This document shows, in pieces, positions 2,159 through 30,195 of a DNA stretch of 32,000 nt. The stretch is taken from contig CAWGDV010000029.1 in NCBI GenBank assembly GCA_963821465.1, positions 392,597 to 424,596 on the forward strand, read 5' to 3'. The DNA comes from an uncultured Nitrospiraceae bacterium. Its GTDB lineage: Bacteria > Nitrospirota > Nitrospiria > Nitrospirales > Nitrospiraceae. A program made the position numbers and the translations under genes. The notes under the pieces are model-generated. The model ran no database searches. It saw only the letters and a program-made list of their open reading frames with translations, and was not told where the DNA came from. Position 1 is the first letter of the stretch; each line of letters opens with the position of its first letter.

Positions 2159-2498
2159 TGGGATACCAGCGAATAGTTTCTTCGTCATTAGGGCGTAATC
2201 TCCACTATTATCTTCTGAATTTCCCTACTGCAATCGTCTGCCCATGAGCCTGTCGAAACGTATCGTTCCACTGAGTGAATTCCAGCGATTGCACCTTCGT
2301 CAGGGCGCCTGACCATCTACGGGTTTTGCTTCCATGCTTGGCATCGGCTCAGCCTCGCGGCTGTCAGCCTACTCCGAGACGACTGGAGAGACAGCCGGAT
2401 CGGCAGGTCGACATGTGGCCAAGCCAGTCTCTCCGATTGCAAATCGGCCTCCCGCTGCAGTAGCGTGGCCTGCATGTATTGGTGAGGGCGATTCGTCT

Positions 2499-6669: not shown

Positions 6670-7893
6670 TCAGGGCTTGTAATCGGTGTGTTCGGAGGGT
6701 TTACCCCCATGTGAGAACTGATGCATGAACGCGATCACCTGCCAGATCTGCTCTTCTGAGAGGTACGACTTCCAGGCCTTCATTGTCGTCTTTGGAACCC
6801 CTTCCGCCACTCGCCAGAACCAGTAGCTGTCTGAGAAACGGCGGATGTTTTTCTGGTCACGAAGCCCTCCCCCACTTTTTACCGGTTGACCGTCCTTATG
6901 GCAACTGCGGCAGCCCTCCGCGGAGTAAATCTGCCTTCCCTCCTCGATGACCTTAGGATCCGTCCACCAGCCAGCCGGCATATGTTTGTCGGCATAATCG
7001 GCCGGAACTGGGGCCAATGGCATTAGTTCCCCAGAGTACGCCATCCCTCCTGAAGGAGTCAGGACAGGATTCTTCGCACACCGGAACCCGCTGTTGAAGT
7101 TCCGGTACGACGGTGACTCATAGCTGGGGGATAACGGTAGGTTGAAGTCCCGGCGCGTGGATCGCAGGTGCTCCGGAGCGAGGTCCCACGAGCCGCCCCG
7201 CAACACTCTGTATTTACCATTTTCCGGCCCCTTCGGGTTCTGCGGCGGGCTGGTCGTGTAATAGTCCGGGTCATACCAGTCGCTCACCCATTCCCAGACA
7301 TTCCCCGCCAGATCATAGACCCCATAGGGGCTTCTGCCGTCTTTCAATTGCCCCACCGGCACCAGCGCGGTATGGTTGTTCCACTTCTCCTTCCCATAGT
7401 TCGCCCGAAGCGGATCGGGGGGTTCATTGCCCCAGGGATAGATCCGCCCATCCGTCCCCCGGGCCGCCTTCTCCCATTCCGCTTCCGTCGGCAGCCGCTT
7501 GCCGGCCCACTCGCAATAGGTGCTCGCATCCGACCAGTCGACATTCACGACCGGGCGCTTCTGATGGGGCGGCTGGTCCATGGTTGTCCACATCGGCGGC
7601 CCGTTCACGCCCCTGGCCTCCAGAAACTTCGCATACTGCCCGACCGTCACTTCATACTTGTCGATGTAATAGGCATCGAGAGAGACCCGATGGACGGGCT
7701 TTTCATCGTCACTACCCTCGTTGCTCCCCATCGTAAATTCCCCCGCCGGCACGAGCACCATCGGTGCCCCATCGTTACCAGTGATCTCCTGCTGCTGCGC
7801 CTGCGCTTGGCCTGCGACCCCAGCGACGAACGTGACAGCCATCAGCACACCGAGCACACTCACCCACCCCGGCCCCCGCTGCCTCATCCCCAT
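6670..7893 (-). CDS. periplasmic FGE-sulfatase (SUMF1/PvdO-type) domain protein fused to a C-terminal mono-haem cytochrome c domain
   Basis: Signal peptide MGMRQRGPGWVSVLGVLMAVTFVAGVAGQAQA. FGE-family motifs are [25 protein letters not shown] and GFRCAK. A CRSCH haem motif lies at 6898-6912 with a downstream Met (TTMKAW). Start at 7893 is preceded by AAGGAGGAG. Confidence 0.85.
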   Translation of the reverse strand: MGMRQRGPGWVSVLGVLMAVTFVAGVAGQAQAQQQEITGNDGAPMVLVPAGEFTMGSNEGSDDEKPVHRVSLDAYYIDKYEVTVGQYAKFLEARGVNGPPMWTTMDQPPHQKRPVVNVDWSDASTYCEWAGKRLPTEAEWEKAARGTDGRIYPWGNEPPDPLRANYGKEKWNNHTALVPVGQLKDGRSPYGVYDLAGNVWEWVSDWYDPDYYTTSPPQNPKGPENGKYRVLRGGSWDLAPEHLRSTRRDFNLPLSPSYESPSYRNFNSGFRCAKNPVLTPSGGMAYSGELMPLAPVPADYADKHMPAGWWTDPKVIEEGRQIYSAEGCRSCHKDGQPVKSGGGLRDQKNIRRFSDSYWFWRVAEGVPKTTMKAWKSYLSEEQIWQVIAFMHQFSHGGKPSEHTDYKP

Positions 7894-8096
7894 GCTTCTC
7901 CTCCTTGCCGGTTCGCCACCGGTCAACCTATCGTAAACCTGCTTGCTGTCACCCTCAACACTGCAAGCTTCCCGCAGCCCGTCCATTCGGTTACACAGTA
8001 CCGTGAGAATATGGCAGAACTGAATGCAGGACTGCGGGATAAAATCCCGCAACATTTCTTCCCGGAGGATCGATTCACGAGATCATCCACGCGGCG

Positions 8097-8309
8097 CTAC
8101 GAATGTCGAGCGTGGTTCCGCTCGGCTCGTTGGAGCAACAGGCTGACGATTCGTACGTTGTTGTCCAGGCCCTGCCATTTCAGAAAATTCATCAGCCCTG
8201 GCTGTTTCGCTTCAAGGCGCTCGACCAGGCGGGTGGCGGCTTGAGACACTTCGACCCCTTGTTCATTCGACAGCGTGACGGTTATGGAGAGGGTTCCCTC
8301 CCGGCGCAT
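8097..8309 (-). CDS. small hypothetical protein (weak ABM/dimeric alpha-beta-barrel-like pattern)
   Basis: 70-aa ORF from the ATG at 8309 (LSITVTLSNEQGVEV..QPGLMNFLKWQGLDNNVRIV). It lies directly downstream of an IS relic. Support is weak. Confidence 0.25.
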   Translation of the reverse strand: MRREGTLSITVTLSNEQGVEVSQAATRLVERLEAKQPGLMNFLKWQGLDNNVRIVSLLLQRAERNHARHS

Positions 8310-8355
8310 GGGCAGATGGCCAGAGTGATGTTCCCCCAATCCCGAGGATACTAGG

Positions 8356-8660
8356 TTAAGCCACCGCCGTCCTCGCTTCGTACTCGGCCGGGGAGTTATA
8401 GCTAAAATTGGGGTGCCGGCCCTTACGATAATAGAACACCTCGATATACTCGAAAATGTCCTGCGTCGTTTCGGCCCGAGTGGCGTAGTGCCGATGGTAC
8501 ACAAACTCGCGCTTGAGTGCCCCAAAGAGACTTTCGACGCAGGCTTGTCCCAGCAGTTGCCTTTTCGGCTCCTGCTCGGAGTGATGCCGTGAGTTTAGTA
8601 TAGTGGGCCATATGGATCGCGACGTTTTCCTGGTGGATGCCCTGTTGTCGATGCTTCACC
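8356..8660 (-). mobile_element. IS3-family transposase (OrfB/rve) C-terminal relic
   Basis: The minus-strand translation gives HGITPSRSRKGNCWDKACVESLFGALKREFVYHRHYATRAETTQDIFEYIEVFYYRKGRHPNFSYNSPAEYE, the hallmark IS3 integrase-core C-terminus. There is an in-frame stop upstream, the 5' part is absent, and no IRs were seen. Confidence 0.75.
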
Positions 8661-8661
8661 A

Positions 8662-9013
8662 CGATCCTGTTCAGGAAAATCGTTTGACCTGCTCTGTCAA
8701 CGTGTTTGCGACAAGATTCAGATCGAACGGCCAGGCGTAACGGAGCTCGATCCCGGGATGCTGTGGCCGCAGATGATCGAGGATTTCAGGAATCTCAACC
8801 TCCGAGTGAGAACCGCCCGGCGTAAACATCGTCGTGGTGACGGTAATGTGGGTTGCGCCCTTCTTAATCAGCTCCTCCACGGATTCCTCCAAGGTCGGCG
8901 CACAGAACTCGTTGTAGGCCACCGCAAAGAGCACCTCTCCCAGGTTGGCTCGCAACTGAGCAGCCACCGCCTCAAGTCCTGATTGATAGGGGTCCGTCTC
9001 CGGCGTCCTCGGC
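8662..9013. repeat. copy B of the roughly 350-bp segmental duplication (partner 6181-6532)
   Basis: Covers the 3' two-thirds of the intact cbiX-like gene. Its left boundary abuts the IS3 relic. Confidence 0.8.
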
Positions 9014-9180
9014 CACTGGCGGATCTTGGTATCCAGCTCGACCTCTTCCGGCGAAGGAGGCATCTTCGCGTTACGCCGCTGAGCCTCCAACCGTTTCAGT
9101 TTCGTGACCAATTCCTGCGGAACACCCTTGGGAATACCGCCGTGACCAACTAGAATCACTCCTCGTGTCGTGGTCGCCAT
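8671..9180 (-). CDS. cbiX: CbiX(S)-type sirohydrochlorin chelatase
   Basis: 169 aa with ILVGHGG near the N-terminus and TPGGSHSEVEIPE, characteristic of small CbiX/SirB chelatases. Confidence 0.8.
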   Translation of the reverse strand: MATTTRGVILVGHGGIPKGVPQELVTKLKRLEAQRRNAKMPPSPEEVELDTKIRQWPRTPETDPYQSGLEAVAAQLRANLGEVLFAVAYNEFCAPTLEESVEELIKKGATHITVTTTMFTPGGSHSEVEIPEILDHLRPQHPGIELRYAWPFDLNLVANTLTEQVKRFS

Positions 9181-9225
9181 CTCATTACCCCTCTTGTTGA
9201 TACTCGCGCCCGGTTACACTCATAT

Positions 9226-9591
9226 TCAGCCCGTCGTCGCCTCCAGATATTCCTGTAAATTGGTCTTGCCGTAGCGACTGTCCTGGTACACTTTTCGAAT
9301 AAATCCTGCCACCAAAGCCATCACCTTTTTCACCGCGGGGGTCTTCTCAGGATCTGTGGCCGGCAAGAGACGGACGGTGATCGCCTTCTCGTGAAGCTTG
9401 AGCTGGACAAAGAAGGTGCACGGAACCCCGTTTTCGATCGCAACCGAATCCAGCAGCGCCTCTTTGCCGCTCCGTGCGAGAAAGAACTCCTGGACTTTGA
9501 GGATCTCGCTCCCCGCCCGATGAATGATCGGTGTGAAGGCCTGATATAAGCCCTGCAGATCCCCGGCTTCTTCTATGACAACATGCGGCAT
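9226..9591 (-). CDS. hypothetical protein
   Basis: 121-aa ORF starting 12 nt after the ybgA-like stop and ending 45 nt before cbiX. No recognisable domain. Confidence 0.6.
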   Translation of the reverse strand: MPHVVIEEAGDLQGLYQAFTPIIHRAGSEILKVQEFFLARSGKEALLDSVAIENGVPCTFFVQLKLHEKAITVRLLPATDPEKTPAVKKVMALVAGFIRKVYQDSRYGKTNLQEYLEATTG

Positions 9592-9603
9592 GTTTCTTCC
9601 TTT

Positions 9604-10557
9604 CTACACATGATTGCGCAACATGAGTTCCTTCGGATGCGGATTGAGATAGACCTGATCACGAATGTAGCCGACATCGAAGATCTGGACGTAGTGTTTG
9701 ATCAGCGTCAGAGGGACAACCAAGGGCGTGAGCTCCTGATGATAATCACCGATCACGCCCAATAGCTCGGCTTTCTCGTGAGCGCCGAGCCGCCCCTTGA
9801 AATACCCCAGGATGTGTTGGAGTACGTTCACATGTTTGCGCACCGTCGCTTTCACGGCCAATGCCTTCATGAACAGTTCCCCGTATCGGTGAGCGAGCTC
9901 CTTGGGACGGTGCTGATGCGCCTGACCGACCAGCCGCCCAAGCACCTCGCATTGCTGCGGACTATGGGCCAACAGTAAATATTTATGGACCATGTGGAAC
10001 TGCATCAGAGCCTGCCTCGTGACGCCACTCTGCACGAGATCCTGCCAGCGGCGGTAACAGAAGACTCGCTCGATAAAATTCTCCCTGAGCGTAGGCTCGC
10101 AGAGCCGCCCCTCTTCCTCAACCGGAATCAGCGGAAACTGTTCGATAAAGGCCCGAGCAAATAGTCCGACTCCGTTCCGGCTGGGTATTCCATGCTCATT
10201 GTAGAGACGAACTCGCTCGATCCCGCAGCTCGGCGAGCCTTTCTTAAATACGTACCCGGATAAATCCAAACTCTTAAGTCCCTCGATACGATGCGTGGCC
10301 ATCGTCTCTAGTGCGCGCGTGTGATCTGTCCCACTCTTGATCGTCACGAGCCGTGGATTCTGAAGATCGCCGACCAATCGCATCGCCTCGCGAGGAGTGC
10401 CCAGTCCTGCCTCAACCTCCGGACAGACCGGGACCCACTCCACATAGCGGCCAAACACATCGGTCAGAAAACTGTCCCGCTTATGTCCCCCATCGAACCG
10501 GACTTCGTCTCCGATGAGGCAACGGCTGATCCCAAGACGGAGCGCCACGGTCGTCAT
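9604..10557 (-). CDS. YbgA-like DUF523/DUF1722 protein
   Basis: The N-terminal DUF523 pattern (GISRCLIGDEVRFDGGHK..VPVCPEV) is followed by the DUF1722 helical part (..HYLLLAHSPQ..). The ATG at 10557 overlaps the photolyase stop (ATGA), so the start was moved from 10650. Confidence 0.85.
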   Translation of the reverse strand: MTTVALRLGISRCLIGDEVRFDGGHKRDSFLTDVFGRYVEWVPVCPEVEAGLGTPREAMRLVGDLQNPRLVTIKSGTDHTRALETMATHRIEGLKSLDLSGYVFKKGSPSCGIERVRLYNEHGIPSRNGVGLFARAFIEQFPLIPVEEEGRLCEPTLRENFIERVFCYRRWQDLVQSGVTRQALMQFHMVHKYLLLAHSPQQCEVLGRLVGQAHQHRPKELAHRYGELFMKALAVKATVRKHVNVLQHILGYFKGRLGAHEKAELLGVIGDYHQELTPLVVPLTLIKHYVQIFDVGYIRDQVYLNPHPKELMLRNHV

Positions 10558-12002
10558 CTCGTCACCAGTTGCTTGCCAAGGGCTAAATACTCCTCGCGGG
10601 CTTGCCGGTGATCCACGATGGGCGAAGAATAGTCTGTGCCGATACGGCATCCCGCCAGGGTCTGTTCTTCCTGGGTCATCAGATGCGGCGCATGAATCCG
10701 GTCAGTCGGAACGCCTGCAAGCTCCGGCACATACTGCCGAATGTACGCGCCGTCGGGATCGAACTTCCTGCTCTGCAGCATAGGATTGAAAATTCTGTAC
10801 CCCGGCATGGAGTCCGTCCCGGTCGAGGAGGCCCATTGCCAATTGCCGTTATTGGCCGCAAGGTCGGCATCGACCAGTTGCTGCATGAAATAGCGCTCTC
10901 CGCTTTGCCAATCGATGCGAAGATCTTTGATGAGAAACGACGCCACGACCATCCGCACGCGATTGTGCATCCATCCGGTCTGGTTCAACTGCCGCATGCC
11001 TGCATCCACCAGCGGATAACCGGTTCGTCCGTCACACCAGGCGGCATAGAGCCGATTCCACTCCGCTCCCGCCGGACGGGGTCTCGGCAGTCCGTCCTTG
11101 CTTCGGAACGGACCGGAGACCACTTGTGGAAACGCGGACAAGATTTGTTGGAAAAACTCACGCCAGATCAATTCATCGATCCAGGTGAGCACGTCGCGCC
11201 GCGATACGCGGCCTCCTGCCGCGAACGTGCCTAAGGCCGCATGCACGGCGGTTCGCACCGAGAGAGTTCCGAACCGGAAGTGGGGGGACAGTTTGGATGT
11301 CCCGTCGATCGCGGGGAGATTCCGTCCTTTAACGTACCTGTGAATGGGGCCATTAAGAAACCAGCGAAGCCGTCGCTGCGATTCCTTCTCTCCCGGTTTG
11401 ATGAACAAGGGGGCTGTCTGATAGCCGAGATCTTCCACCGTCGGTAGCGCGATCCGGTGTGACAAAGCACCGGAGCGCTGGACTCGCAGCCTGACGGCGG
11501 AGGGAAGGAGCGGCGGAGTCGCGGCGTGCCACTTGGTCCACCACCGGGCACGATAGGCGCTGTATCGCTGCAAAGGATCTCCCGTCGATCCTCTGATCTC
11601 TTCGGCCTCGAAGACCACATGGTCCTTGTACGTGTGGACCGCCACACCACGGGTCATCAGCGCCTGCTGGACTTTCCGATCTCGCTCGATCGCCGCCGGC
11701 TCGTAATCGCGATTCCAATAGACCGCATCGGCCTTGACGTCCGCGACGAAACGGATCACCTCCTCGATTTGATTCCCCCGGCGCCACTGCAGGGCCAGTC
11801 CTAGAACGGCCAGGGCACCGGCAAGCTCGTCGAGACAGGAGAGCATGAACGTCACGCAGGGCGAGCCAAACTGCCGTGAGCGCAAGAGGGGATCGTCAAA
11901 TACGAAGAGAGGAATGACGTCGTCGCAATTTGCGCAGGCGGCAGTGAGTGCCGGTTGGTCCTGCAGCCGTAGGTCCCGTCTGATCCAGACAACCCCTCTC
12001 AT
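10554..12002 (-). CDS. phr: deoxyribodipyrimidine (CPD) photolyase
   Basis: N-terminus VWIRRDLRLQDQPAL and the FAD-binding region TGYPLVDAGMRQL..GWMHNRVRMVVASFL..DADLAANNGNWQW are present. SD GGAGGA lies upstream. Confidence 0.9.
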   Translation of the reverse strand: MRGVVWIRRDLRLQDQPALTAACANCDDVIPLFVFDDPLLRSRQFGSPCVTFMLSCLDELAGALAVLGLALQWRRGNQIEEVIRFVADVKADAVYWNRDYEPAAIERDRKVQQALMTRGVAVHTYKDHVVFEAEEIRGSTGDPLQRYSAYRARWWTKWHAATPPLLPSAVRLRVQRSGALSHRIALPTVEDLGYQTAPLFIKPGEKESQRRLRWFLNGPIHRYVKGRNLPAIDGTSKLSPHFRFGTLSVRTAVHAALGTFAAGGRVSRRDVLTWIDELIWREFFQQILSAFPQVVSGPFRSKDGLPRPRPAGAEWNRLYAAWCDGRTGYPLVDAGMRQLNQTGWMHNRVRMVVASFLIKDLRIDWQSGERYFMQQLVDADLAANNGNWQWASSTGTDSMPGYRIFNPMLQSRKFDPDGAYIRQYVPELAGVPTDRIHAPHLMTQEEQTLAGCRIGTDYSSPIVDHRQAREEYLALGKQLVTR

Positions 12003-12256
12003 CAGGGTAATTCCTCCGATACAGGGATGGGGTACTTTGCTCCCAGGTCTTCATCCGTAACAAAGGCCCGTCACCAGGTCATATACGCGACAAACAACAT
12101 AGTCGTGGCCGCGAATCATGATCGAACAGGATGCAAGGGCCAGCTAGCGGATAAGCGCCGCGATGACCTCGATCATTTCCCTTGCAGTGCGCCCGTTACC
12201 TCGAAGTCGTAAGGACGACTGATTCACGTGACCCTCCAACGAGAGCACCCGAGACT

Positions 12257-12844
12257 TCACTGTATACTTCCCGTGCGCCAATTCCGCAGCCACTTCGATC
12301 GTATAAGCCTGTACCCGAGCCAGGCCACGAGCAGCACTCCTAGCAGTGGGCCTGCCACGGTGCGCACCAGCTTCTGATAATCGGTCATCTGTACCCGCAA
12401 GAGATACTGCGGGCGCCGCATCAGATTCTGCTTCTCCGTCGCAATGATGACCGTATACAGGCCCTCGTCCAGCCGGGCTTCGCCCCGGAGCACGCCGTCT
12501 GGGTGGGTACTCGGACGAATATCTGCCACAATCTCACCTTCTGCCTCATTGCTCCAGTTACCCTTCACTACCCTCATGCCGACCGGCTCGTTGCGCAACT
12601 CTGGGTCCACGAGGTCCACGACCAGGAAGGTGTCGCCATTCTTTGGAATATCTGTGCAGTATTGGTCTTTCAACTGGTATTGCGGCTGATAGGCGCTGAA
12701 ATGCACCACGCGCTCACCGACTTGGCGCAAGCAGGGGTCGTCTTCTCCGCTCGCTGTCCCATGTGCCGCGGCTATGTCGGGGTGGTAGAGTGCTACTACA
12801 AGAATGAGTGCCATAGAGCTTGCCTGTGTGACTTGCCTAATCAT
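12257..12844 (-). CDS. exported hypothetical protein with C-terminal membrane anchor
   Basis: 195-aa ORF with a signal-like N-terminus and a C-terminal TM (GPLLGVLLVAWLGY). Its start overlaps the PDZ gene stop (ATGA at 12841-12844). Confidence 0.6.
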   Translation of the reverse strand: MIRQVTQASSMALILVVALYHPDIAAAHGTASGEDDPCLRQVGERVVHFSAYQPQYQLKDQYCTDIPKNGDTFLVVDLVDPELRNEPVGMRVVKGNWSNEAEGEIVADIRPSTHPDGVLRGEARLDEGLYTVIIATEKQNLMRRPQYLLRVQMTDYQKLVRTVAGPLLGVLLVAWLGYRLIRSKWLRNWRTGSIQ

Positions 12845-13329
12845 GGCCGAACCCTCCCATGTGATCCCATCTCGCCCTTATAGAGTTTTTCGCCGGCGAT
12901 ACGTGTGACCGCAATTTCGCGCAGCCCCCCGTCTCCCTTCACGCCCAGTTTCACCGCTGTGCCCGCTTCGCCGCGCACCATCTGTATCACCTGTTCATAG
13001 GTCTTGCCGGTGACTGCCGCACCGTTCACCGTCACCACTTCATCCCCGTGTTTGAGGCCTGCTTGCTGTGCAGGGCTCTCCGGATGCACATGGTTCACGT
13101 ACAGCGAAGCCGGATCGCCGATACGTTCCGCCCCCACATGCAACGACACCCCAATCACACCGTTCGGCAGGTCGGCATCGTCTCCATGCGGTCGCTGGGC
13201 CTGATTCCCTGGCTTGTCGTACCCTTCAGCCGCCCAGATCTCGCCTGTCTTCCCTGATAGTTGAAACAACACGACGGTCAGTACACTCAGCAGTACTGCG
13301 GAGGTGATGCTGATCTTGTTGGTCGTCAT
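12841..13329 (-). CDS. membrane-anchored or exported PDZ-domain protein
   Basis: PDZ signature GVSLHVG..VNHVHPESPAQQAGLKHGDEVVTVNG..V. N-terminal hydrophobic segment. SD AAGGAGG. Confidence 0.75.
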   Translation of the reverse strand: MTTNKISITSAVLLSVLTVVLFQLSGKTGEIWAAEGYDKPGNQAQRPHGDDADLPNGVIGVSLHVGAERIGDPASLYVNHVHPESPAQQAGLKHGDEVVTVNGAAVTGKTYEQVIQMVRGEAGTAVKLGVKGDGGLREIAVTRIAGEKLYKGEMGSHGRVRP

Positions 13330-13442
13330 GTGAATGCCTCCTTGTTAACTACAATGATTGCAACTTCGATTACACACAGTCCCGCGAGCGGCACGAGTGA
13401 ATTCAGATATACCGATCGCTAGGGGCCATGGGACACCCTCCG

Positions 13443-14357
13443 TTATCCCTTCGTCATGATCGCCCGCAAGGCCGGTTCCAGTGTCGGGTAGTGAAAGATG
13501 TATCCCCCGGCGAGCGCCTTCCCCGGACTAACCCGTTGGCCCGTGGTCATGAGCGTCCCCAGTTCACCCAGTGCCAGGTGTAATGCGAAACCCGGCACGG
13601 GCAGCCAGGATGGCCGGTGGAGGACTCGTCCGAGTACCTCACAGAAGGTGTTCATCGTCACAGCCTCTGGAGCCACCGCATTGAGGGGACCAGCGACGCT
13701 CGGCGTCGTGAGTACCCACTGGATCAGACCGATGTGATCACCTCGATGGATCCACGACACCCACTGAGTTCCCGGCATGACCGGGCCGCCCGCAAAGAGC
13801 TGGAACGGCAACAGCATCTTCGGCAAGGCACCGCCGTCTTGCTCGAGCACCATCCCGGTCCGCAACATGACGACTCGCACACCGAATTCCGCAGCCCGAA
13901 GCGCCTCCGCTTCCCATGCAAGACAGAGATCGGCCAGAAAGCCTTGGCCGCGAACGGCGCCCTCATCCAATATACGATCGTCGCTGGGCCCGTAGTAGCC
14001 GATACCGGAGGCGCTGATCAGCGTACACGATTTCGAGGACCGGCGAGACAGGGCTTCTACCAGTAGATGAGTGGTGAGGACCCGGCTTTCCGTGAGGAGG
14101 TGCTTACGGGTATCAGTCCAGCGCTCATCGGCAATCGGCGCACCGGCCAGATTGATGACGGCATCGGCACCTTCGAGACAGTGCTCCCATCCTCCCGCAT
14201 TCTGGCCATTCCACTCGACGACCGTGACGTTTGAGCCACAGGACCGTTGCGCTTGAATCCTTCTCGTGAGGAGGGTGATCCGATGGCCCTCCTGACAGAG
14301 AGCGGCACATAAGGGCCGACCGATGAACCCCGTTCCGCCGGTAATAACAATCTGCAT
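13443..14357 (-). CDS. TIGR01777 (YfcH/SDR39U1-like) epimerase-family protein with DUF1731 C-terminus
   Basis: Rossmann motif ITGGTGFIGRPL, 304 aa in length, with a C-terminal ..GQRVSPGKALAGGYIFHYPTLEPAL typical of this family. Confidence 0.85.
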   Translation of the reverse strand: MQIVITGGTGFIGRPLCAALCQEGHRITLLTRRIQAQRSCGSNVTVVEWNGQNAGGWEHCLEGADAVINLAGAPIADERWTDTRKHLLTESRVLTTHLLVEALSRRSSKSCTLISASGIGYYGPSDDRILDEGAVRGQGFLADLCLAWEAEALRAAEFGVRVVMLRTGMVLEQDGGALPKMLLPFQLFAGGPVMPGTQWVSWIHRGDHIGLIQWVLTTPSVAGPLNAVAPEAVTMNTFCEVLGRVLHRPSWLPVPGFALHLALGELGTLMTTGQRVSPGKALAGGYIFHYPTLEPALRAIMTKG

Positions 14358-14402
14358 GGTCTCATTTCCCTACCAGGTCTCCCGCACGGGACCGACAAGT
14401 GG

Positions 14403-14726
14403 CTAGTCGCCGTGCTGCTTGTCGCTCCCATGGCCGTTCCGATCTTGCCCCTCTGACATATCTCGATCTACCCGTTGAGCATACTTTCGCTGCTTCACGC
14501 CGTGTAAGAGATCCGGCATCGGGTTCAATCGGTTCTGAAGAATGACCGGGTCGATGACCTCGCCACAACTGGTGCAACGCACACCCGTGATGCCGATTTG
14601 ACCAGTATCGTCTTGGAGGTCCAGGTAATACTCCTTGATCATCAATCCCCCGCAACGCGTGCAGGTGCCTTCGCCGGCTTGCGAAGTGGAGCGTGGACGA
14701 TTGTCTGGTCTCCCATTCGATTCCAC
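14403..14726 (-). CDS. small C4 zinc-ribbon protein, uncharacterised family (paralog of 21127-21423)
   Basis: CTRCGGLMIKEYYLDLQDDTGQIGITGVRCTSCGEVIDPVILQNR aligns residue-for-residue with the second copy (CxxC-x22-CxxC). The frame choice is supported by this conservation. The SD is weak. Confidence 0.7.
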   Translation of the reverse strand: MESNGRPDNRPRSTSQAGEGTCTRCGGLMIKEYYLDLQDDTGQIGITGVRCTSCGEVIDPVILQNRLNPMPDLLHGVKQRKYAQRVDRDMSEGQDRNGHGSDKQHGD

Positions 14727-14768
14727 TGGAACCCTCGATGGCGATCACAATGCTCAACTGGGTGCTCC

Positions 14769-14894
14769 TCACCTGACTCGAAACCTACCCACTCCGGCCT
14801 GCCGTCGCACCGCCACAGCCGTTCTCCATTGCGCGGCGCATGTCCACCAGCGTAGAGCTACCATTGCCATTACCACCAAGATGATCTGGTCCAT
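14769..14894 (-). CDS. candidate 41-aa membrane mini-protein downstream of amoC
   Basis: The ATG at 14894 is preceded by GAGGAGG at a 5-nt spacing. The product is MDQIILVVMAMVALRWWTCAAQW.. (one TM followed by an Arg-rich tail). It lies in the 280-bp gap between amoC and the zinc-ribbon gene. No homology evidence. Confidence 0.3.
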   Translation of the reverse strand: MDQIILVVMAMVALRWWTCAAQWRTAVAVRRQAGVGRFRVR

Positions 14895-15005
14895 GCTGCC
14901 CTCCTCACCATCTGTCCTCTCGCTAATATCCCAACCGGGTGGTTGGCGGCCCTGCTCTCCGGCATCCGGAGCGCGGGACCAGCCCACCGCAACCAACGGC
15001 CTGAC

Positions 15006-15806
15006 TTAGTACGGGATCACGTGCAAGCAGTCCTTGCTCTCGTTGTTCCAGACCACATCGCACAGGTTCGACATGCGCGCCACAATCTGCGCCGCCACGC
15101 CGCCCGTCCCGCCAAACAACCCGCACCAGCCCAAGGTCACAAAGCCCCAGTGCAACGGCGCGGCAAAGAGTTCATCGACAAACCAGAACGCATGCCCCCA
15201 CTCGTTGAGTCCCACGTTGGGCAGAATCATCATCGGCCCCACGATCGCCCCCACCAAGGGGAACGAGACCGCCTTGCTGAACTGCGGCAGCCGGGTCATG
15301 GCATACAGATAGCTCGCCACGCCACAGGTGATGTACAGCGGGAAGGTGAAGTAGAACGCGATGATATGGCTGGCGGTGAAGCTCGTATCGCGGATGATCA
15401 CCTGATGCCACGACGCGTCCTGCTCCAGGGTGTAGCTCCCCGCCCAATAGACGCCGAACACGTACAGCGCGAGCCACATCATCCAGTAGAAATACCGCTT
15501 GAGTTCGGTCTTGGGATCCACGTTGGCCACGTTGCGATCCCGCGTGCTCCAAATCCATCCCAAGGTCGCGGACGCGAAGATGATGTTGGAAATCACGTTA
15601 AACCGCCACAGGCCCATCCAGACATTCTCGAACTCCGGCGTCATGGAGTCCAAGCCGTGGGAGTAGCCGAAGACGCGCTGAAAGACGACTTCGGAGCCCA
15701 CCGCCGCCAACATGGCAAACCAGCCGATCTTGAGGGGCCTGGAATCGTACCAGAGCGACATATCATAGCCCCGGTCTGACCCTCCCCACGTTGTTGTACT
15801 CGCCAT
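15006..15806 (-). CDS. amoC: ammonia monooxygenase subunit C (orphan copy, no amoA/amoB adjacent)
   Basis: Long collinear matches to AmoC/PmoC: [84 protein letters not shown]. Confidence 0.95.
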
Positions 15807-15824
15807 ACCCTAACCTCCTTGTTA

Positions 15825-15841
15825 AGTGATTGAAAATCACT
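15825..15841. promoter_or_regulatory. perfect 7-3-7 palindrome in the amoC 5' leader
   Basis: On the coding strand AGTGATT-TTC-AATCACT lies 7 nt upstream of the amoC SD. It could be an operator or a leader RNA hairpin. Confidence 0.35.
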
Positions 15842-15930
15842 GCGTATTGAGACCCACTCCCCATCTCATCACTGCCGACAGTCCCGCTCCTTCATTCTTG
15901 TCACCCCCTTTCGTGGCTCACCGAGCAGAC

Positions 15931-15999
15931 AGGCCCCTCCGGGGTGTAGGGAGGGGCCTATCTACCTCAGCGGGAGGCGCCGTGCGGAGTCGCGGCGCC
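15931..15999 (-). terminator. two tandem GC-rich hairpins separating the upstream FGE-like gene from amoC
   Basis: AGGCCCCTCC (15931-40) pairs with GGAGGGGCCT (15950-59), and GGCGCCG (15976-82) pairs with CGGCGCC (15993-99). No U-tract, so terminator function is inferred only. Confidence 0.4.
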
Positions 16000-16075
16000 C
16001 ACCAAGACTGGGAAAAGAAACCGGCCTCCGTATCTTTGCTGTGGTCATCTGGTTTCATCGTACTCACCACTTCGT

Positions 16076-16921
16076 CTACTTCTGTTGGGTCTGGCCCTCG
16101 AGACCCCGTGCACAGCGAAAGCCTGTACCATGGGTCTGCAGCGCGAATCCGCCGCGCCCGCGCGCCGTCGTCGTGATGTCCGAGATCGGGCTATGCCAAG
16201 ACCCACCGCGAATCGATCGGACCACGCCTTTTTTCTCAGGACCCTGCGGATTCCGATCCGGCGCATGCTGGTAGTACTCAGCGTCATACCAATCCTGCAC
16301 CCACTCTCGAGCATTACCGGACAGGTCCTTCACCCCGTAGGGTGAGTCGCCGTCGGGCAAGGACCCGACCGGATGCAATGTGTGCTCCTCCTCCCACTCA
16401 CGGTCAAAGTTCGCCCGCTTCGATGTCGCTGGTTCATTGCCCCAAGGAAAGAGACGACCATCGGTGCCGCGAGCGGCCTTCTCCCATTCCGCTTCCGTCG
16501 GGAGCCGCTTCTTGGCCCAACTGCAATAGGCCTTGGCGTCGTACCAGGTAGTCTGCACGACCGGAAGCTGTTCGATTCCCTTCACGGACAGGAGCGGGCC
16601 TGTGCCATAGGGATTCGGAGGGCTTCGATGGCCCGTGGTCGCAACGAACGCCAGATACCGTGCATTCGTCACTTCGACTTGATCGATCGCAAACTCGTCG
16701 AGGTACACAGATCGCTGCGGCCACTCATCTGCCCGGCCTTTTCCTTCCGGATTCCCCATCAAGAATTCTCCAGCCGGAATCGTCACCATGGGGACCGGGT
16801 CAACCTCTTTGGGAACCGGCGGCGCTGCGACGACAGGCGCGATGGCGACGGCACAGACTAGGGCCATCATCGCAACAATAGTGCTCCAGCGAGTTCCTCT
16901 TCTCCTCAGACCTTGCGTCAT
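16076..16921 (-). CDS. periplasmic FGE-sulfatase (SUMF1/PvdO-type) domain protein
   Basis: Start at 16921 (MTQGLRRRGTRWSTIVAMMALVCAVA, signal peptide) overlaps the upstream stop (ATGA). Motifs [25 protein letters not shown] and GFRCAR are present. Confidence 0.85.
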   Translation of the reverse strand: MTQGLRRRGTRWSTIVAMMALVCAVAIAPVVAAPPVPKEVDPVPMVTIPAGEFLMGNPEGKGRADEWPQRSVYLDEFAIDQVEVTNARYLAFVATTGHRSPPNPYGTGPLLSVKGIEQLPVVQTTWYDAKAYCSWAKKRLPTEAEWEKAARGTDGRLFPWGNEPATSKRANFDREWEEEHTLHPVGSLPDGDSPYGVKDLSGNAREWVQDWYDAEYYQHAPDRNPQGPEKKGVVRSIRGGSWHSPISDITTTARGRGGFALQTHGTGFRCARGLEGQTQQK

Positions 16922-17286
16922 TTCTTCTGCTCCTTGCTCCCCTCGATGGCCTTGGTGGTATGGACTTTCACTTGGCTTACGAGACGCTGCACCTGACGCT
17001 CGTCTCCCCGCTCGGCTGCCTCTTGCGCCTGAGTGATGAGGGTTCTGGCTTCGTGCAGGTGCTGCTCGATTTCGGCCTGCAGGGCAGGGGAAGCGACCGT
17101 TCCGCCTAACGCCGCGCGATGATAGACCTCCCACGCCTGGTCCACATCATGCTCGGCCTCATGCACCGTCTGGGCCTTGTCTGGCTGCGGATGCCGGGCC
17201 GGATCGATGGGATCAGCCTGGAGGGGTGAGGCCCCGAGTAGTGCAAGGAGGACAATCCCTGGAAGGAGAATCTTGCCGTGTATCAT
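16918..17286 (-). CDS. exported all-helical protein (weak Spy/CpxP-like flavour)
   Basis: Signal peptide MIHGKILLPGIVLLALLGASPLQA followed by charged helical sequence (LITQAQEAAERGDERQVQRL). Translationally coupled to the downstream FGE-like gene. Confidence 0.6.
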   Translation of the reverse strand: MIHGKILLPGIVLLALLGASPLQADPIDPARHPQPDKAQTVHEAEHDVDQAWEVYHRAALGGTVASPALQAEIEQHLHEARTLITQAQEAAERGDERQVQRLVSQVKVHTTKAIEGSKEQKK

Positions 17287-17339
17287 AGATGCGCCTCCGT
17301 CACGATCAAACCATTAACAATAAACGTTGTAACCGTCTT

Positions 17340-18398
17340 TCACGGCCGCTTCATCGATTGCTCAATCAACTGTTGAAGCTCCAAGAGTTCCGCATTCTTT
17401 GGATCAATGGCCAGTCCCTTGGTGACGGCCTGTTGGGCCTCCGCAAACCGTTCTCGTCCCATTTCCACCAAGGTAGCGATGTAGCTGTCCCGAATCTGCT
17501 GTTCGATTTCTGGTGGGGCGGTCTTGGCACAGCGTAAGCCCAAGCCCACGCCGTAGCTGTTATTGAGCGGGTGATTCCAGAACCGGTGCGTCGCCTTGAC
17601 CGTGCCTTCTGGCGCGATCCATGATCCGCCACGAATAACCCGCTTTTCACCAACCGTGAGCCGGTCCACATAGGTGCCGGTGCCACCCATCCATACGGGT
17701 TTTGCCGGACCGGTCGGATTCACCATGGGTTCAAGCTTTCCATAGTAGCGGGGGTCATACCAGTCAGCGACCCACTCGAAAACATTGCCGGCCATGTTAT
17801 ACAGACCATAATAACTGGCTCCCTCCGGATAGGAATCCACCGGCATGGTCGCATCGTGATTCTTGCCATAGTTGGCTTTGGCTGAATCGAAGTCATTGCC
17901 CCAGGGGTAGAGGTTGGCCTGGGGACCACGAGCCGCCTTCTCCCATTCCGCCTCCGTCGGAAGGCGTTTACCGCGATATTCACAGAAGGCTGTGGCATCC
18001 TCCCAATTCACTCCGACCACCGGCTGTTGCGGCTTATTCAAGCGGGGATCGTCCCAGTAGGCAGGGGCCGGATGACCTTTCGCCTTGATGAACTGGCCAT
18101 AGTCCTTGTTTGAAACTTCGTACGTATCCATGAGGTATGCATCCAAGAACACCATATGCGCTGGACCTTCGTCACGTAACGCCTCGGCCGACCAGGGTGT
18201 CTTCATCCGTCGGTCGTACGGTGTAGGTTTTTTACCTGAGTCCACAGGCTCTTCCTTATCGACCCCCATCACCGATGCTCCATGCGCGATGTACGCCATG
18301 TCTTTCGGGATCAAGGACTCCTCCGCACGGACTGGTGCAGGCAATAGTATGAATCCCGCCGCCAGTGTCGCGAGCACAATGACTTGTGCCGTATGCAT
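17340..18398 (-). CDS. periplasmic FGE-sulfatase domain protein with C-terminal TPR-like helical tail
   Basis: Start at 18398 (MHTAQVIVLATLAAGFILLPAPVRA) is preceded by GGAGG. Motifs [25 protein letters not shown] and GLRCAK are present. The tail is ..FAEAQQAVTKGLAIDPKNAELLELQQLIE. Confidence 0.85.
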   Translation of the reverse strand: MHTAQVIVLATLAAGFILLPAPVRAEESLIPKDMAYIAHGASVMGVDKEEPVDSGKKPTPYDRRMKTPWSAEALRDEGPAHMVFLDAYLMDTYEVSNKDYGQFIKAKGHPAPAYWDDPRLNKPQQPVVGVNWEDATAFCEYRGKRLPTEAEWEKAARGPQANLYPWGNDFDSAKANYGKNHDATMPVDSYPEGASYYGLYNMAGNVFEWVADWYDPRYYGKLEPMVNPTGPAKPVWMGGTGTYVDRLTVGEKRVIRGGSWIAPEGTVKATHRFWNHPLNNSYGVGLGLRCAKTAPPEIEQQIRDSYIATLVEMGRERFAEAQQAVTKGLAIDPKNAELLELQQLIEQSMKRP

Positions 18399-18473
18399 TT
18401 CGGACCTCCACCACAAGTTAGTTTTCTGATAGAGCAACCTCGCCGCCTCCACTCCCCCCATACGCAGTTCGGT

Positions 18474-20030
18474 TCAGCGGCGGTGCGGCGCCGCCGTCTG
18501 CCCGTTAGGTATCTTCGCCTTATCGAGGTCTCTCATTTCACGCAACGCTGCTTGTGCGATTCCCCGCAGCATCCCACTAAACACCAACTCGTGCGGCACG
18601 TAGAGCGAATACCAATAGATCTGCCCGATCAGTCCCACCGGATCAAAGATCGCGGTCTGCCGGATCGTCGTCGAAGAGCCGGACCCCGTCACCTCGAACT
18701 CCAGCCATGCCCGCCCGGACAAATGCATCTCGGATTTGAGCCGCAGGCGGCGGTTCGGCTCAATCGCCTCCACGCGAAATGAGTCGACCGTATCACCGAC
18801 GTGAAGGGTCGTGGCAGAAGGCCGTCCACGTCTCAAGCCCACACCCCCTTCGAGCAGGTCGATGAAACCGCGCACCCGCCACAGCCAGTTCCATGCGTAC
18901 CAACCATTGTCACCACCGATTCTCTCAATGCATTTGAAGACGACTTCAGGCGGCGCTTCGACGGTCAACGTCCGCGAATCGACCAGACGCGTGCCGAACC
19001 GCACGCCCCCCCACGACTGCAACTTTCCCGATGAGGAGAGCGCATCGGACCAGCGCGTTGCCGCGAAATGCGTCTCTTCATGGGCTAGAGCTCGGCGAAT
19101 TGCCTCATCGACTCCCATCGGACGTACAGAGAAGGTTGCGAGCGCGGCATTGTCCCGCACCACCGTGACATGGACGATGCTCTCAATAATCGCCCGCCCG
19201 ATGCGAGCGTATAACGGCGTGACCAATCCAAGCCACAGAGCAGACAACCAAGGGGTGAGGACCGGCACGGGGATGATCAGAGGCGCTAGCCCGCGTTGCC
19301 GCCCATACGCACGCATCATATCTGCGTAGGACACTTGGTCCGCACCGCCGACCTCGTATATGCGGTATTTGGAGGTGGGAATCCGAAGCGCTTCCATCAG
19401 GTAGTCCAGCAAGTCGTCGATCGCGATTGGCTGCGCCTTCCCCTTGACCCATCTCGGTGTGAGCATGACCGGCAGGCGCTCCACCAGCGCGCGAATCAGC
19501 TCAAACGAGGCGCTGCCGGAACCAATCACGGCCGATGCGCGAAACTCACACACGGGCAGGCCCGACTGCCGCAAGATATCTCCGACCTCGTGCCGACTGC
19601 GCAGATGTGTCGAGAGTTCCTCTTCGTCGCTGCCCAAGCCTCCCACATAGATGAGGCCCTTGACACCCGCTGCCTTCGCCGCTTCGCTAAAGTTCCGCGC
19701 CGCCTGCCGGTCCGTCTCTTCAAAAGAGCCGGTCGAACTCATGGAGTGAATCATGTAGTAGGCCACGTCGACTCCGCGCAATGCGGAGTCGAGACTCGGT
19801 CGATCAAGGACGTCACCCGCGACAACTTCCGTTGATGGACCGACCTTCGGCTTGAGAATTTCTGGATGCCTGGCCACGCAGCGCAAGCGGTACCCCTGAT
19901 TCTCCAACGACGGCAGGAGGCGCCCGCCAATGTACCCGCTGGCACCTGTGAGAAGAATGAGGGACTTCTCCGGAATTGCCGCTGGGCTCACTGTCGATTT
20001 GCTCGCCACCATGGTTTCAGACGTATTCAT
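18474..20030 (-). CDS. NAD(P)-binding SDR-family protein with C-terminal DUF2867 domain
   Basis: Rossmann motif LLTGASGYIGGRL. The C-terminus GWYAWNWLWRVRGFIDLLEGGVGLRRGR..GRAWLEFEV is characteristic of DUF2867. The ATG at 20030 is preceded by AGGAGG, whereas the GTG at 20048 is not. Confidence 0.85.
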   Translation of the reverse strand: MNTSETMVASKSTVSPAAIPEKSLILLTGASGYIGGRLLPSLENQGYRLRCVARHPEILKPKVGPSTEVVAGDVLDRPSLDSALRGVDVAYYMIHSMSSTGSFEETDRQAARNFSEAAKAAGVKGLIYVGGLGSDEEELSTHLRSRHEVGDILRQSGLPVCEFRASAVIGSGSASFELIRALVERLPVMLTPRWVKGKAQPIAIDDLLDYLMEALRIPTSKYRIYEVGGADQVSYADMMRAYGRQRGLAPLIIPVPVLTPWLSALWLGLVTPLYARIGRAIIESIVHVTVVRDNAALATFSVRPMGVDEAIRRALAHEETHFAATRWSDALSSSGKLQSWGGVRFGTRLVDSRTLTVEAPPEVVFKCIERIGGDNGWYAWNWLWRVRGFIDLLEGGVGLRRGRPSATTLHVGDTVDSFRVEAIEPNRRLRLKSEMHLSGRAWLEFEVTGSGSSTTIRQTAIFDPVGLIGQIYWYSLYVPHELVFSGMLRGIAQAALREMRDLDKAKIPNGQTAAPHRR

Positions 20031-20100
20031 TGTCAGACCTCCTGTCACGACTTGGGCCCTCGGAGGGGGGACGATGCCGCCCCCTCCGCCAGTCCTTCAA

Positions 20101-21068
20101 CTAGTTCTTCTTCATGCTCTTCTTGATCAGATCGCGTGTCGCGAGGTATTCCTTGTTGCCAGGCTCCGCAGCCAACGCCTTCTCGATGGAGGACATCGCA
20201 TCGGCGTTCTTCTCAGCGCCCATCGCGACTAATGCCTGAATGAACGCATCGCGGCCTGCTTGCATGGCTTCATCGGAAACCGCCTGTGCCGACTTCGCGC
20301 AACGGAACCCGAGGCCGACCCCATAGGAGTTATTCTCCGGCTGATTCCAGAACCGATGGCTCGTATGGAGGGAGGTTTCCGGCGCGAGCCAGGAACCGCC
20401 GCGCAGCACCCTCACCGGGCCTTGATTGGCAAAGTTGTAGCCCTTCTCGGCGCCAGGTGGATTCAAGGCAGGGCTCTCCTTATAGTATTTCAGGTCATAC
20501 CAATCCTCGACCCACTCGAAGACGTTCCCTGCCATGTTATAGACCCCAAACCCGCTGATCCCTTCTGGATAGGAATCCACCGGCGGTGGTACGACCAACA
20601 TTCTGCCCATAGTTGGCTTTCTTCGGGTCGAGTGTATGGCCCCAGGGATAATGGTTGTCGCCTTGCGGACCTTTTGCCGCTCGCTCCCATTCTGCTTCCG
20701 TCGGAAGCCGCTTGCCTTCCCACTTGCAGAACGCGCTTGCATCATTCCAATCTACGCCGACCACCGGCTGATCGGCCTTACTCAGTCGAGGATCATCCCA
20801 ATAGGCCGGGGCCGGGTGACCGCTGGCTTTCATAAATTCTTTGTACCGCTGTGTTCGAGGCTTCAAACTTGTCGATCAGATAGGCATCGAGCACGACCTG
20901 GTGCTTGGCTTCATCTGAATGTTCATTGCTCCCCATGGTGAACTCGCCCTTTGGGATCAGCACCATGTCCTTATCGCTGTTCGGCATGTCCGCCGCTGTT
21001 GCGACAGTGATGGCTCCTGCCATCAATGCCACCCCCAATCCGACCTGAAGCACTCTGTAACTCCTCAT
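20101..21068 (-). pseudogene. FGE-sulfatase domain gene (closest to 17340-18398) broken by two frameshifts
   Basis: Homology runs through three frames (ORFs 20793-21095, 20537-20866, 20101-20745). The shifts lie near 20846-20848 (GCGG where GCG fits) and near 20585-20595. A signal peptide, [25 protein letters not shown] and GFRCAK are all retained. Confidence 0.8.
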
Positions 21069-21126: not shown

Positions 21127-21423
21127 CTATGAGCAGTTCGTTACGCAATTGTTTTGATATATTCTCCCTGCAAGCTGAACTGTGGTCGAATCTTGCCGGA
21201 GCTGCCGATTGTGCAGAATGACGGAATCGACAACCTCACCACACTGCACACAGCGTTTCGCCGCAATCTCAGACTCCCCGATGTTTCCGAGTACATCCAG
21301 GCAGAAGTCCTGAACCATGAGTCCGCCGCATCTGGTGCACGTCGATTCATGTTGGGCTGTGGAAGATGCCGTGTGATTCTCGCTCGGTTCATTGTTCGTT
21401 TTCACCGTCAACGCTCTTGCCAT
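21127..21423 (-). CDS. small C4 zinc-ribbon protein, uncharacterised family (paralog of 14403-14726)
   Basis: CTRCGGLMVQDFCLDVLGNIGESEIAAKRCVQCGEVVDSVILHNR. The ATG at 21423 is preceded by TGGAGGT. It is the first gene of the minus-strand train and is divergent from the MerR/B12 regulator. Confidence 0.7.
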   Translation of the reverse strand: MARALTVKTNNEPSENHTASSTAQHESTCTRCGGLMVQDFCLDVLGNIGESEIAAKRCVQCGEVVDSVILHNRQLRQDSTTVQLAGRIYQNNCVTNCS

Positions 21424-21465
21424 GGCTACCTCCATAGGTTTTTTGTTTAATGTTTGTAATAAGTA

Positions 21466-21537
21466 TGTCCAATGTATAAACCATTTTGTCCAATGTGTCA
21501 AGTGTTATTGTAAAATATATTTGACAAACATTAGACA
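21466..21537. promoter_or_regulatory. three copies of a 10-bp box, ACATT(G/A)GACA, overlapping both divergent promoters (candidate operator)
   Basis: TGTCCAATGT occurs at 21466-21475 and at 21487-21496, giving a 21-bp periodicity. The inverted copy ACATTAGACA lies at 21528-21537, a 9/10 match. Each promoter has a box abutting its -35 hexamer, and one box covers the minus-strand -10. Confidence 0.5.
21473..21501 (-). promoter_or_regulatory. sigma70-like promoter for the zinc-ribbon gene
   Basis: The minus strand reads TTGACA (21501-21496), a 17-nt spacer and TATACA (21478-21473), about 50 nt upstream of the ATG at 21423. Confidence 0.5.
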
Positions 21538-21549
21538 TTACAATACAAT
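21521..21549 (+). promoter_or_regulatory. near-consensus sigma70 promoter for the MerR/B12 regulator gene
   Basis: TTGACA (21521-26), a 17-nt spacer and TACAAT (21544-49). The ATG at 21562 follows with a very short leader and no SD. Confidence 0.55.
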
Positions 21550-21561
21550 GAAAATGTAAAT

Positions 21562-22479: not shown

Positions 22480-22496
22480 CAGGAGAGGTCGGTCAG

Positions 22497-25646: not shown

Positions 25647-25741
25647 GGGAACCTCCTCGGTTAGGTGCAAAAAAAACCTACGCCATCTTATACGCTCATC
25701 GGAGCGTTTTAGGAACTTGGAACCGCAGGTTCAGGCGCTGT

Positions 25742-30174: not shown

Positions 30175-30195
30175 CTCTTGCTCCTGAATAAGAGC

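Follow-up and report, generated by a model that had tools for sequence, protein, structure and literature searches.

What are four secreted proteins with the fold of the formylglycine-generating enzyme (FGE) doing around amoC, an ammonia monooxygenase (AMO) gene, in a Nitrospira-like bacterium? We examined a 32,000-nt stretch of contig CAWGDV010000029.1 from an uncultured Nitrospiraceae bacterium (hereafter the window, whose positions are used throughout), in which an earlier note, made from the sequence, had described four FGE-sulfatase-domain paralogs within 14 kb, clustered around amoC and possibly serving a redox- or copper-related function. Proteins of the window are 80–96% identical to those of Nitrospira metagenome-assembled genomes (MAGs), the closest locus being that of an uncultured Nitrospiraceae MAG (L009; L-numbers denote homologous loci from other Nitrospira genomes). 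We mapped the window proteins by tblastn on 87 such loci and also compared the annotated neighbourhoods of close and distant orthologues; synteny was counted over 79 species-level loci, with each feature scored only where enough flanking sequence was present. The answer we somewhat favour, on comparative sequence grounds, is that the FGE fold has been repurposed here, giving periplasmic stress or redox proteins that are derepressed by light. We place much less confidence in any particular chemistry.

An FGE fold that has lost its copper-binding cysteines

Searching the window with Pfam, we found the FGE-sulfatase domain (PF03781) in four minus-strand genes, as had been described: FGE_A (20101..21068; matched in three pieces, E 1.9e-5, 2.3e-22 and 5.9e-18), FGE_B (17340..18398; E 2.7e-46), FGE_C (16076..16921; E 5e-54) and FGE_X (6670..7893; E 1.4e-62). 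FGE_A and FGE_B carry a helical tail, FGE_C is 281 aa long and FGE_X ends in a mono-haem cytochrome c. In a four-way alignment the paralogues are 41–47% identical to FGE_C, and the motifs that the earlier note had singled out, RLPTEAEWE(K/R)AA(R/K)G, GN(V/A)xEWV, RGGSW and G(F/L)RCA, are fully or almost fully conserved. Orthologues of FGE_A are 58% identical to FGE_B, and FGE_C is 75–96% identical across Nitrospira; an exact-sequence look-up of FGE_C gave no match, and homologues were used in its place.

The best sequence matches in the Protein Data Bank (PDB) were true FGEs (phmmer, E ~1e-30). An AlphaFold2 model of FGE_C (pLDDT 84, pTM 0.81), a check that the earlier note had suggested, is likewise predicted to have the FGE fold: the top Foldseek matches of the model were true FGEs (TM ~0.70, 31–33% identity), and CalU17, PvdO (5hha, E 1e-17), pFGE, ToxD, OvsA/EgtB, PorK and TvpA followed.

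We then aligned the FGE active-site loop, GGSYLCHDSYCNRYR, of the S. coelicolor (6muj/2q17) and human enzymes with the corresponding stretch of FGE_C, GGSWHSPISDITTTAR, and found one Cu-binding Cys deleted and the other replaced. The Cu-binding pair is indeed missing after RGGSW, and in the orthologue set drawn from 80-odd loci the loop has no Cys in any member of group A (72 sequences), B (53), C (83) or X (19). Since these cysteines are lost, no formylglycine is expected to be made by these proteins, and the claim that they are not canonical sulfatase maturases stands for all four and for every orthologue examined. Nor was a sulfatase domain present among the window open reading frames (ORFs) scanned or in the neighbourhoods seen, again as had been stated for the vicinity. 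The sole conserved cysteines in the orthologues are the pair in AYC...FRCA, which we take to be the structural disulfide of the fold; the GNxxEW motif is presumably part of FGE's second Ca site. The Arg after RGGSW is conserved in the paralogues. The former active-site loop is almost invariant within each group (RGGSWHSPISD...QTH in C; LAPETSLHTSHRFWN in A/B), which argues for a specific function.

None of the window proteins approached the NCBIfam equivalog cut-offs for EgtB, SenA, GldK, PvdO, OvoA or GldJ. The PvdO model NF051459 gave 28–75 bits against a cut-off of 500 and the GldK model TIGR03525 56–102 bits against 350, while the EgtB/OvoA/SenA models gave C-terminal partial matches below their cut-offs. 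Pfam shows PF03781 alone, plus cytochrome c in one protein, with no N-terminal DinB_2 domain. These proteins thus appear to have the FGE fold without being FGEs or members of any curated subfamily. Databases label them 'formylglycine-generating enzyme' or 'SUMF1/EgtB/PvdO family nonheme iron enzyme'; the first label is contradicted by the missing cysteines, and the second is unsupported here.

Comparison with characterised relatives places them more closely. With the aerobic Cu-dependent FGEs (human SUMF1, 1y1e; S. coelicolor, 2q17/6muj; T. curvata, 5nxl/6s07) they have the whole fold in common, including the RLPTEAEWE helix, GNxxEW, the AYC...FRCA pair and the Arg after GGS(W/Y), but their Cu(I)-binding cysteines are gone, no sulfatase is nearby, they appear to be secreted, one is fused to cytochrome c, and their context is of CarH type. 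PvdO (periplasmic, for dihydropyoverdine oxidation) and pFGE/SUMF2 likewise have the FGE fold without the catalytic Cys pair; unlike these, the window proteins are closer to true FGEs, fall far below the PvdO cut-off and have no pyoverdine genes nearby. PorK/GldK of the T9SS (type IX secretion system), the immunity protein Tsi3 of the T6SS (type VI secretion system) and Treponema TvpA reuse the fold as an envelope binding or structural scaffold, whereas the window proteins lack a T9SS, T6SS or diversity-generating retroelement (DGR) context and one paralogue has a redox partner. The EgtB/OvoA/SenA sulfoxide synthases share with them a C-terminal FGE-like domain, which accounts for the partial hidden Markov model matches, but the DinB_2 N-terminal domain that forms part of the EgtB active site is missing from the window proteins, which also appear to be secreted. 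NirV is co-transcribed with nirK; neither the scanned window ORFs nor the annotated neighbourhoods showed a copper nitrite reductase gene.

All four genes begin with a signal-peptide-like sequence, in agreement with the earlier note, as judged by a hydrophobicity check and not by a trained predictor: mean Kyte-Doolittle values over 12 N-terminal residues were 2.2–2.9 for the FGE proteins vs 0.8–1.6 for cytoplasmic controls. For FGE_X, the c-type haem domain (PF13442, E 5.6e-10, with a CRSCH haem-binding motif) would itself imply export. A periplasmic location is accordingly probable for the family on sequence features. Inspection of the N-termini gave no convincing lipobox, and a GldK-like lipoprotein nature for FGE_C was rejected, a Cys occurring in the signal region of just 43% of orthologues. 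Of the C-terminal additions that had been proposed, the cytochrome c is well matched, while the TPR-like tail has a below-cut-off match (Fis1_TPR_C, E 0.003).

FGE_A is broken here, as had been noticed from its frameshift: its reading is spread over three frames by two +1 insertions (G at 20849 and C at 20586, minus strand) that are missing from five orthologues. Removing both restores a 321-aa protein, and the remainder of the gene is undamaged. The insertions extend no homopolymer run of ≥3 bases and the other window genes are intact; FGE_A would be either a very recent pseudogene or the product of two sequencing errors. FGE_B, at 58% identity, may compensate.

A Nitrospira gene string behind a putative CarH-type operator

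The regulator gene at the head of this cluster is carH/litR-like (21562..22479, plus strand), with three Pfam domains in its product: a MerR helix-turn-helix, B12-binding_2 and B12-binding. In the PDB the closest match, along the whole protein, is the light-dependent repressor CarH of T. thermophilus (5c8d/3whp, E 1e-27). The protein has the motifs WHEGHVNVALEH (Wx9EH, with His after Trp), GEEHDIA (ExHxxA) and RVWERRF, in agreement with those diagnostic for the adenosylcobalamin (AdoCbl) photoreceptor CarH (PMC9304148).

Next to the regulator gene lies a divergent promoter/operator region (21424..21561, assigned to neither strand), which contains a 126-bp AT-rich intergenic region (21436–21561) with two promoter-like sites. 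The putative carH promoter (21521–21549, plus strand) reads TTGACA-17-TACAAT, and the putative operon promoter, facing the zinc-ribbon gene Zn1 on the minus strand, has TTGACA at 21501–21496, a 17-nt spacer and TATACA at 21478–21473. One ACATT[GA][GA]ACA box sits inside the carH promoter spacer (21528–21537, plus strand), and three more lie over the −35, the −10 and the start of the operon promoter (21487–21496, 21466–21475 and 21444–21453, minus strand). Elsewhere in the window the box does not occur, besides two single-mismatch hits, and none was found at ≤1 mismatch 5′ of amoC, the second zinc-ribbon gene Zn2, FGE_X or a NapC-like gene.

This operator region is conserved in 60–65 promoter regions of other Nitrospira, where TnnACA recurs at offsets 0, 9, 23, 30 and 52 from the −35 hexamer in 94, 86, 71, 68 and 51% of promoter regions, respectively. 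A composite promoter-plus-box pattern was found 47 times in 1.24 Mb of loci (43 facing carH, 3 of amoC type and 1 in L038). In characterised CarH operators, 11-bp nnnnTnnACAn repeats follow one another in tandem and take in the TTGACA −35 (PMC9304148); the Nitrospira box layout appears compatible with that 11-bp periodicity, but its strong boxes lie ~21–22 bp apart. Scanning the window for Rfam families and tRNAs gave no hit, hence no cobalamin riboswitch.

The locus has much in common with the CarH/LitR regulons of Thermus thermophilus, Myxococcus xanthus and Bacillus megaterium and with Pseudomonas LitR, which has phrB and RudS: the MerR and B12-binding domains, Wx9EH and RxWERR(Y/F), a divergent, apparently autoregulated arrangement, TnnACA repeats over a TTGACA −35, and photolyase and RudS as cargo. 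The last two are established cargo of LitR/CarH-controlled light operons (PMC11417400). Unlike those regulons, the Nitrospira cargo consists mostly of secreted FGE-fold and Zn-ribbon proteins, or elsewhere of a NapC-like/cytochrome c chain; carotenoid genes are not among the neighbours seen, the boxes are spaced ~21–22 bp apart, and two regulator paralogues share one operator type.

The genes behind the operator keep their order across about 80 species-level Nitrospira loci, including a N. defluvii MAG (L086) and Nitrospira sp. NS4 (L046): carH-like (divergent), then Zn-ribbon, FGE_A, FGE_B, p122, FGE_C, Zn-ribbon, epimerase/DUF1731, (DUF4149), PDZ, small proteins, photolyase, DUF523-DUF1722 (RudS), (p121) and CbiX. 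N. defluvii is a canonical nitrite oxidiser. The divergent carH-like gene was present in 46/49 loci, an FGE_A orthologue in 51/51 and an FGE_B orthologue in 46/66; p122 lay directly 5′ of FGE_C in every one of 72 loci, and downstream of FGE_C photolyase and RudS were found in 44 and 47 of 52 loci. Judging by this synteny, A, B, p122 (seemingly translationally coupled) and C form an ancient Nitrospira gene string directly behind a putative CarH-type operator-promoter. Gaps among Zn1, FGE_A, an inserted DUF2867 gene, FGE_B and p122 are 52–75 nt, p122 overlaps FGE_C, and between the promoter and the photolyase gene the minus strand showed no strong terminator-like site; co-transcription of at least part of the string is what this spacing suggests.

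The product of p122 (16918..17286, minus strand; its stop overlaps the FGE_C start as ATGA) is predicted to be a secreted three-helix bundle, three helices being present in its AlphaFold2 model (pLDDT 80). It belongs to no Pfam family, its PDB sequence matches were only designed helical proteins, and Foldseek gave no hit below E 0.5. Its homologues (n = 1122) are all unnamed or 'hypothetical', and those few with a source name come from Nitrospira/Nitrospirae MAGs. A Spy/CpxP- or SmbP-like identity was considered and went unsupported, there being no structural match below E 0.5.

Zn1 (21127..21423, minus strand; start set by a conserved GGAGG-N5-ATG), the first gene past the operator, encodes a small CxxC...CxxC zinc-ribbon protein, and Zn2 (14403..14726, minus strand) a second small paralogue (45% identity, E 8e-21). 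In other genomes, too, a Zn-ribbon gene comes first behind CarH operators; Zn2 of the window comes after a gap 3′ of FGE_C. The Zn-ribbon proteins may be second-tier regulators. Between FGE_A and FGE_B lies a gene for an NAD(P)-binding (NmrA/SDR-like) plus DUF2867 protein by Pfam (18474..20048, minus strand); missing in L002 and L005 and found in 29/51 loci, it is a lineage-specific insertion.

Farther along the minus strand come a TIGR01777/YfcH-type epimerase-like gene (DUF1731; 13443..14357) of conserved synteny, a gene for a secreted or membrane PDZ protein (12841–13329), p195 (12257–12844), deoxyribodipyrimidine photolyase (10554..12002; identified from its translation, with Pfam DNA_photolyase and FAD_binding_7 on orthologues), a RudS-type gene (9604..10557; DUF523/TudS and DUF1722 by Pfam on orthologues), which belongs to the tRNA 4-thiouridine desulfidase family, and a CbiX-type chelatase gene (8671..9180), whose 3′ end is duplicated at 6190–6525. 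The p195 product matches no family and combines a signal peptide with a domain of ~140 aa and a membrane helix at the C terminus; its paralogues often lie beside amoC copies (L020 about 12265; L025 about 12356; L062 12209–12790). Two overlapping genes for DNA-damage tolerance, one encoding a Pol IV-type translesion polymerase (IMS family) and the other a SprT-like protease, lie at 29020–30886, 7 kb away from the light cluster.

Other Nitrospira have two carH paralogues, about 52–55% identical, behind the same operator type (L009 1999–5460; L011 3819–4800 and 19981–20575). A DCC1-like thiol-disulfide oxidoreductase gene accompanies one of the two, and the window (21562–22913) has that one alone; its carH directly adjoins the FGE operon, as though a stretch from one operator to the other had dropped out. 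The hairpin 3′ of FGE_C (15925–15965) has a perfect 10-bp GC-rich stem, AGGCCCCTCC...GGAGGGGCCT, with no T-tract, and may serve in RNA processing or stability or act as a weak terminator.

The amoC insertion and the cytochrome-linked paralogue

The amoC gene (coding sequence 15006–15806, with AmoC Pfam and NCBIfam matches) lies in a block (14910..15865, minus strand) that, relative to L001, is a clean ~955-bp insertion. At this site amoC is present in just 4–5 of 71 species-level loci (L009, L020, L022, L025, L026), and the FGE string is kept without it elsewhere, the N. defluvii MAG included. The clustering around amoC on which the earlier note had built its functional suggestion therefore does not hold; amoC appears instead to have landed inside an older FGE operon.

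Copies or fragments of amoC also occur elsewhere in the same cluster in comammox-type MAGs. In L062 and L065 a promoter-like TTGACT-A-ACATT[GA]GACA lies 5′ of amoC, either as a singleton or together with a p195-like gene (L065 18800–19150; L062 12090–12830). These sites and a further one in L064 (about 18953, near a contig end) have the carH-promoter layout and are oriented as the cluster genes are. Taken with the insertion after FGE_C in the window lineage, this arrangement suggests that CarH-type control was imposed on spare amoC copies repeatedly, and it suggests a light-derepressed replacement AmoC. AMO is light-sensitive. L012 (4400–4830) has a recombination scar in which the FGE_C 3′ end, the hairpin, the amoC leader and the first 32 amoC codons are joined to a CarH operator's distal half and a further Zn-ribbon gene.

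FGE_X stands apart from the string, between two copies of the cbiX 3′ end (6190–6525 and 8671–9166), as a lineage-specific insertion. The same layout, with the cbiX 3′ third duplicated on either side and an ORF without family match between (8097–8525), is seen in L008, L009, L020 and L036. L054 carries a second carH paralogue (about 52% identical, with the same operator), which is divergent from a string of NapC/NirT-like tetrahaem cytochrome, cytochrome c-FGE and a homologue of SmbP, the small metal-binding protein of Nitrosomonas. The haem domain is N-terminal in the L054 fusion (2158–3354) and C-terminal in FGE_X, and L088 (2938–4313) has, behind the same second carH paralogue and operator, a NapC-like gene followed by separate genes for a 153-aa cytochrome c and a 275-aa FGE. 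The domains are thus permuted within one genus, as FGE-cytochrome c, cytochrome c-FGE and split genes. The existence of a split form and of fusions in both orders argues strongly, on comparative grounds, that this FGE-fold protein has a c-type cytochrome as its working partner, and the NapC/NirT-like neighbour suggests that its electrons come from the quinol pool.

The window has its own NapC/NirT-like tetrahaem cytochrome gene (25934..26539, minus strand), 94% identical to the L054 gene that precedes cytochrome c-FGE. On its 3′ side a secreted 119-aa protein with GGQAG-x-KG...EKLKG repeats and no family match is encoded at 25311–25670. A redox-related function, one half of what had been suggested for the paralogues, is thus plausible for the one with the cytochrome c fusion. 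As to the other half, the sole hint of a copper link is the SmbP homologue beside cytochrome c-FGE in L054 (3523–3903; PDB 3u8v, E 1.7e-12), of which no copy was found in the window.

A candidate light response and its rivals

How might these parts work together? In the dark, an AdoCbl-bound CarH-like tetramer would occupy the operator, cover both promoters and keep the operon repressed; light would break the Co–C bond of the bound AdoCbl and release the repressor. The derepressed cell would then make photolyase and RudS in the cytoplasm and the FGE-fold proteins, p122 and the PDZ protein in the periplasm, where the old peptide/ligand-binding groove of the FGE-fold proteins could bind, protect or process photo-oxidised targets. 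Paralogue X, wired to the quinol pool through the NapC/NirT-like cytochrome and its c-type haem, would probably carry out a quinol-driven redox step. The retained scaffold, with loops conserved within groups and not between them, fits ligand- or peptide-binding modules with differing targets. A fuller version, which we put forward tentatively as one possibility, is that a B12-photoreceptor-gated envelope programme repairs or shields photo-oxidised periplasmic components, and that spare amoC copies of comammox Nitrospira were recruited to the light regulon at least twice, giving a replacement AMO subunit. One recruitment would be the insertion after FGE_C and the other the CarH-type promoter that amoC would have acquired for itself in L062, L064 and L065.

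Several observations weigh against light-derepressed stress or redox proteins. Light control of the genes is something we infer from position and motif. The regulator scores 126 bits with its best NCBIfam model, CarH NF052513, vs a cut-off of 400, which makes it a distant CarH family member, and in its GEEHDIA an Ala replaces the Gly or Pro of the classic B12 motif. The strong boxes have weak repeats between them, vs the three or four contiguous 11-bp repeats of characterised operators. The gene string may be several transcription units, given gaps of 250–280 nt before Zn2 and before photolyase and the conserved GC-rich hairpin after FGE_C. Individual paralogues are dispensable, FGE_A being broken here and FGE_B missing in about 30% of species, and relatives of X at other sites, a 266-aa FGE-only form and a TPR-FGE (L089, L090), are not beside CarH; the CarH link is seen for the cluster paralogues only. 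As for catalysis, an 89-sequence cross-group alignment holds no invariant His, Asp or Cys except the Cys of AYC, and so there is no obvious common metal site.

If the paralogues were AMO or copper-handling accessory factors grouped around amoC, one would point to amoC between FGE_C and Zn2 in the window and five related genomes, to the amoC copies and fragments elsewhere in the cluster in comammox-type MAGs and to SmbP beside cytochrome c-FGE in L054; yet most species, nitrite oxidisers such as that of the N. defluvii MAG (L086) among them, keep the FGE string without amoC, the gene is a clean insertion in few loci, and the family alignment has no invariant Cu-type ligands, all of which makes this reading improbable. 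Working FGEs with an unusual active site, acting on sulfatases encoded elsewhere, would explain why true FGEs are the best sequence and structure matches, but with both Cu-binding cysteines gone from every orthologue (one deleted, one replaced) and no sulfatase gene in the window or the neighbourhoods examined, we consider them scarcely credible. PvdO-like periplasmic oxidoreductases maturing a small molecule that is secreted (for example a siderophore, an antioxidant or a chromophore) would suit the cytochrome c fusion, and PvdO is itself periplasmic, has the FGE fold without the Cys pair and is among the structural matches. Its model, however, is missed by a wide margin of bits, true FGEs are closer in both sequence and structure, and no pvd, nonribosomal peptide synthetase (NRPS) or other biosynthetic genes were found in the neighbourhoods examined; this alternative seems to us decidedly unlikely.

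The proteins could also be non-enzymatic, binding or structural components of the envelope like PorK/GldK, Tsi3 and TvpA, with carH controlling only itself and the Zn-ribbon gene and its adjacency to the FGE string being historical. The FGE fold has repeatedly been reused without catalysis (bioRxiv 10.1101/2021.05.21.445229; PMC12421860). The absence of both the Cys pair and invariant metal ligands agrees with such a role, and the helical tails and the coupled three-helix partner hint at protein-protein contacts. Identity of 75–96% genus-wide and a loop nearly invariant within each group point, on the contrary, to a specific ligand or chemistry, and for X three gene architectures show a link with a c-type cytochrome, besides that with a NapC-like quinol dehydrogenase. 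The neighbourhoods examined contained no visible T6SS or T9SS genes, and the short gaps (52–75 nt) without terminator-like sites speak against a merely historical adjacency, so that we hold this explanation to be unlikely.

Cys-less FGE-fold proteins (PvdO, pFGE, PorK, Tsi3, TvpA) and CarH/LitR light regulons are both already known; our literature search found no paper on this Nitrospira cluster and none joining CarH/LitR with FGE-like genes. Photoinhibition of nitrifiers has long been observed with little molecular explanation, and it shapes the sites of nitrification in lakes, oceans and sand filters. The genus-wide operon of a B12 light sensor, photolyase, RudS and a secreted FGE-fold family supplies candidate Nitrospira light-response genes, and it sets right the tempting but mistaken idea of FGE paralogues in the service of amoC. 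The recurrence of a spare amoC behind the same operator type suggests a route to AMO repair after light damage. If true, light-derepressed stress or redox proteins of this kind would represent a new biological role for Cys-less members of the large, mostly uncharacterised FGE-sulfatase superfamily.

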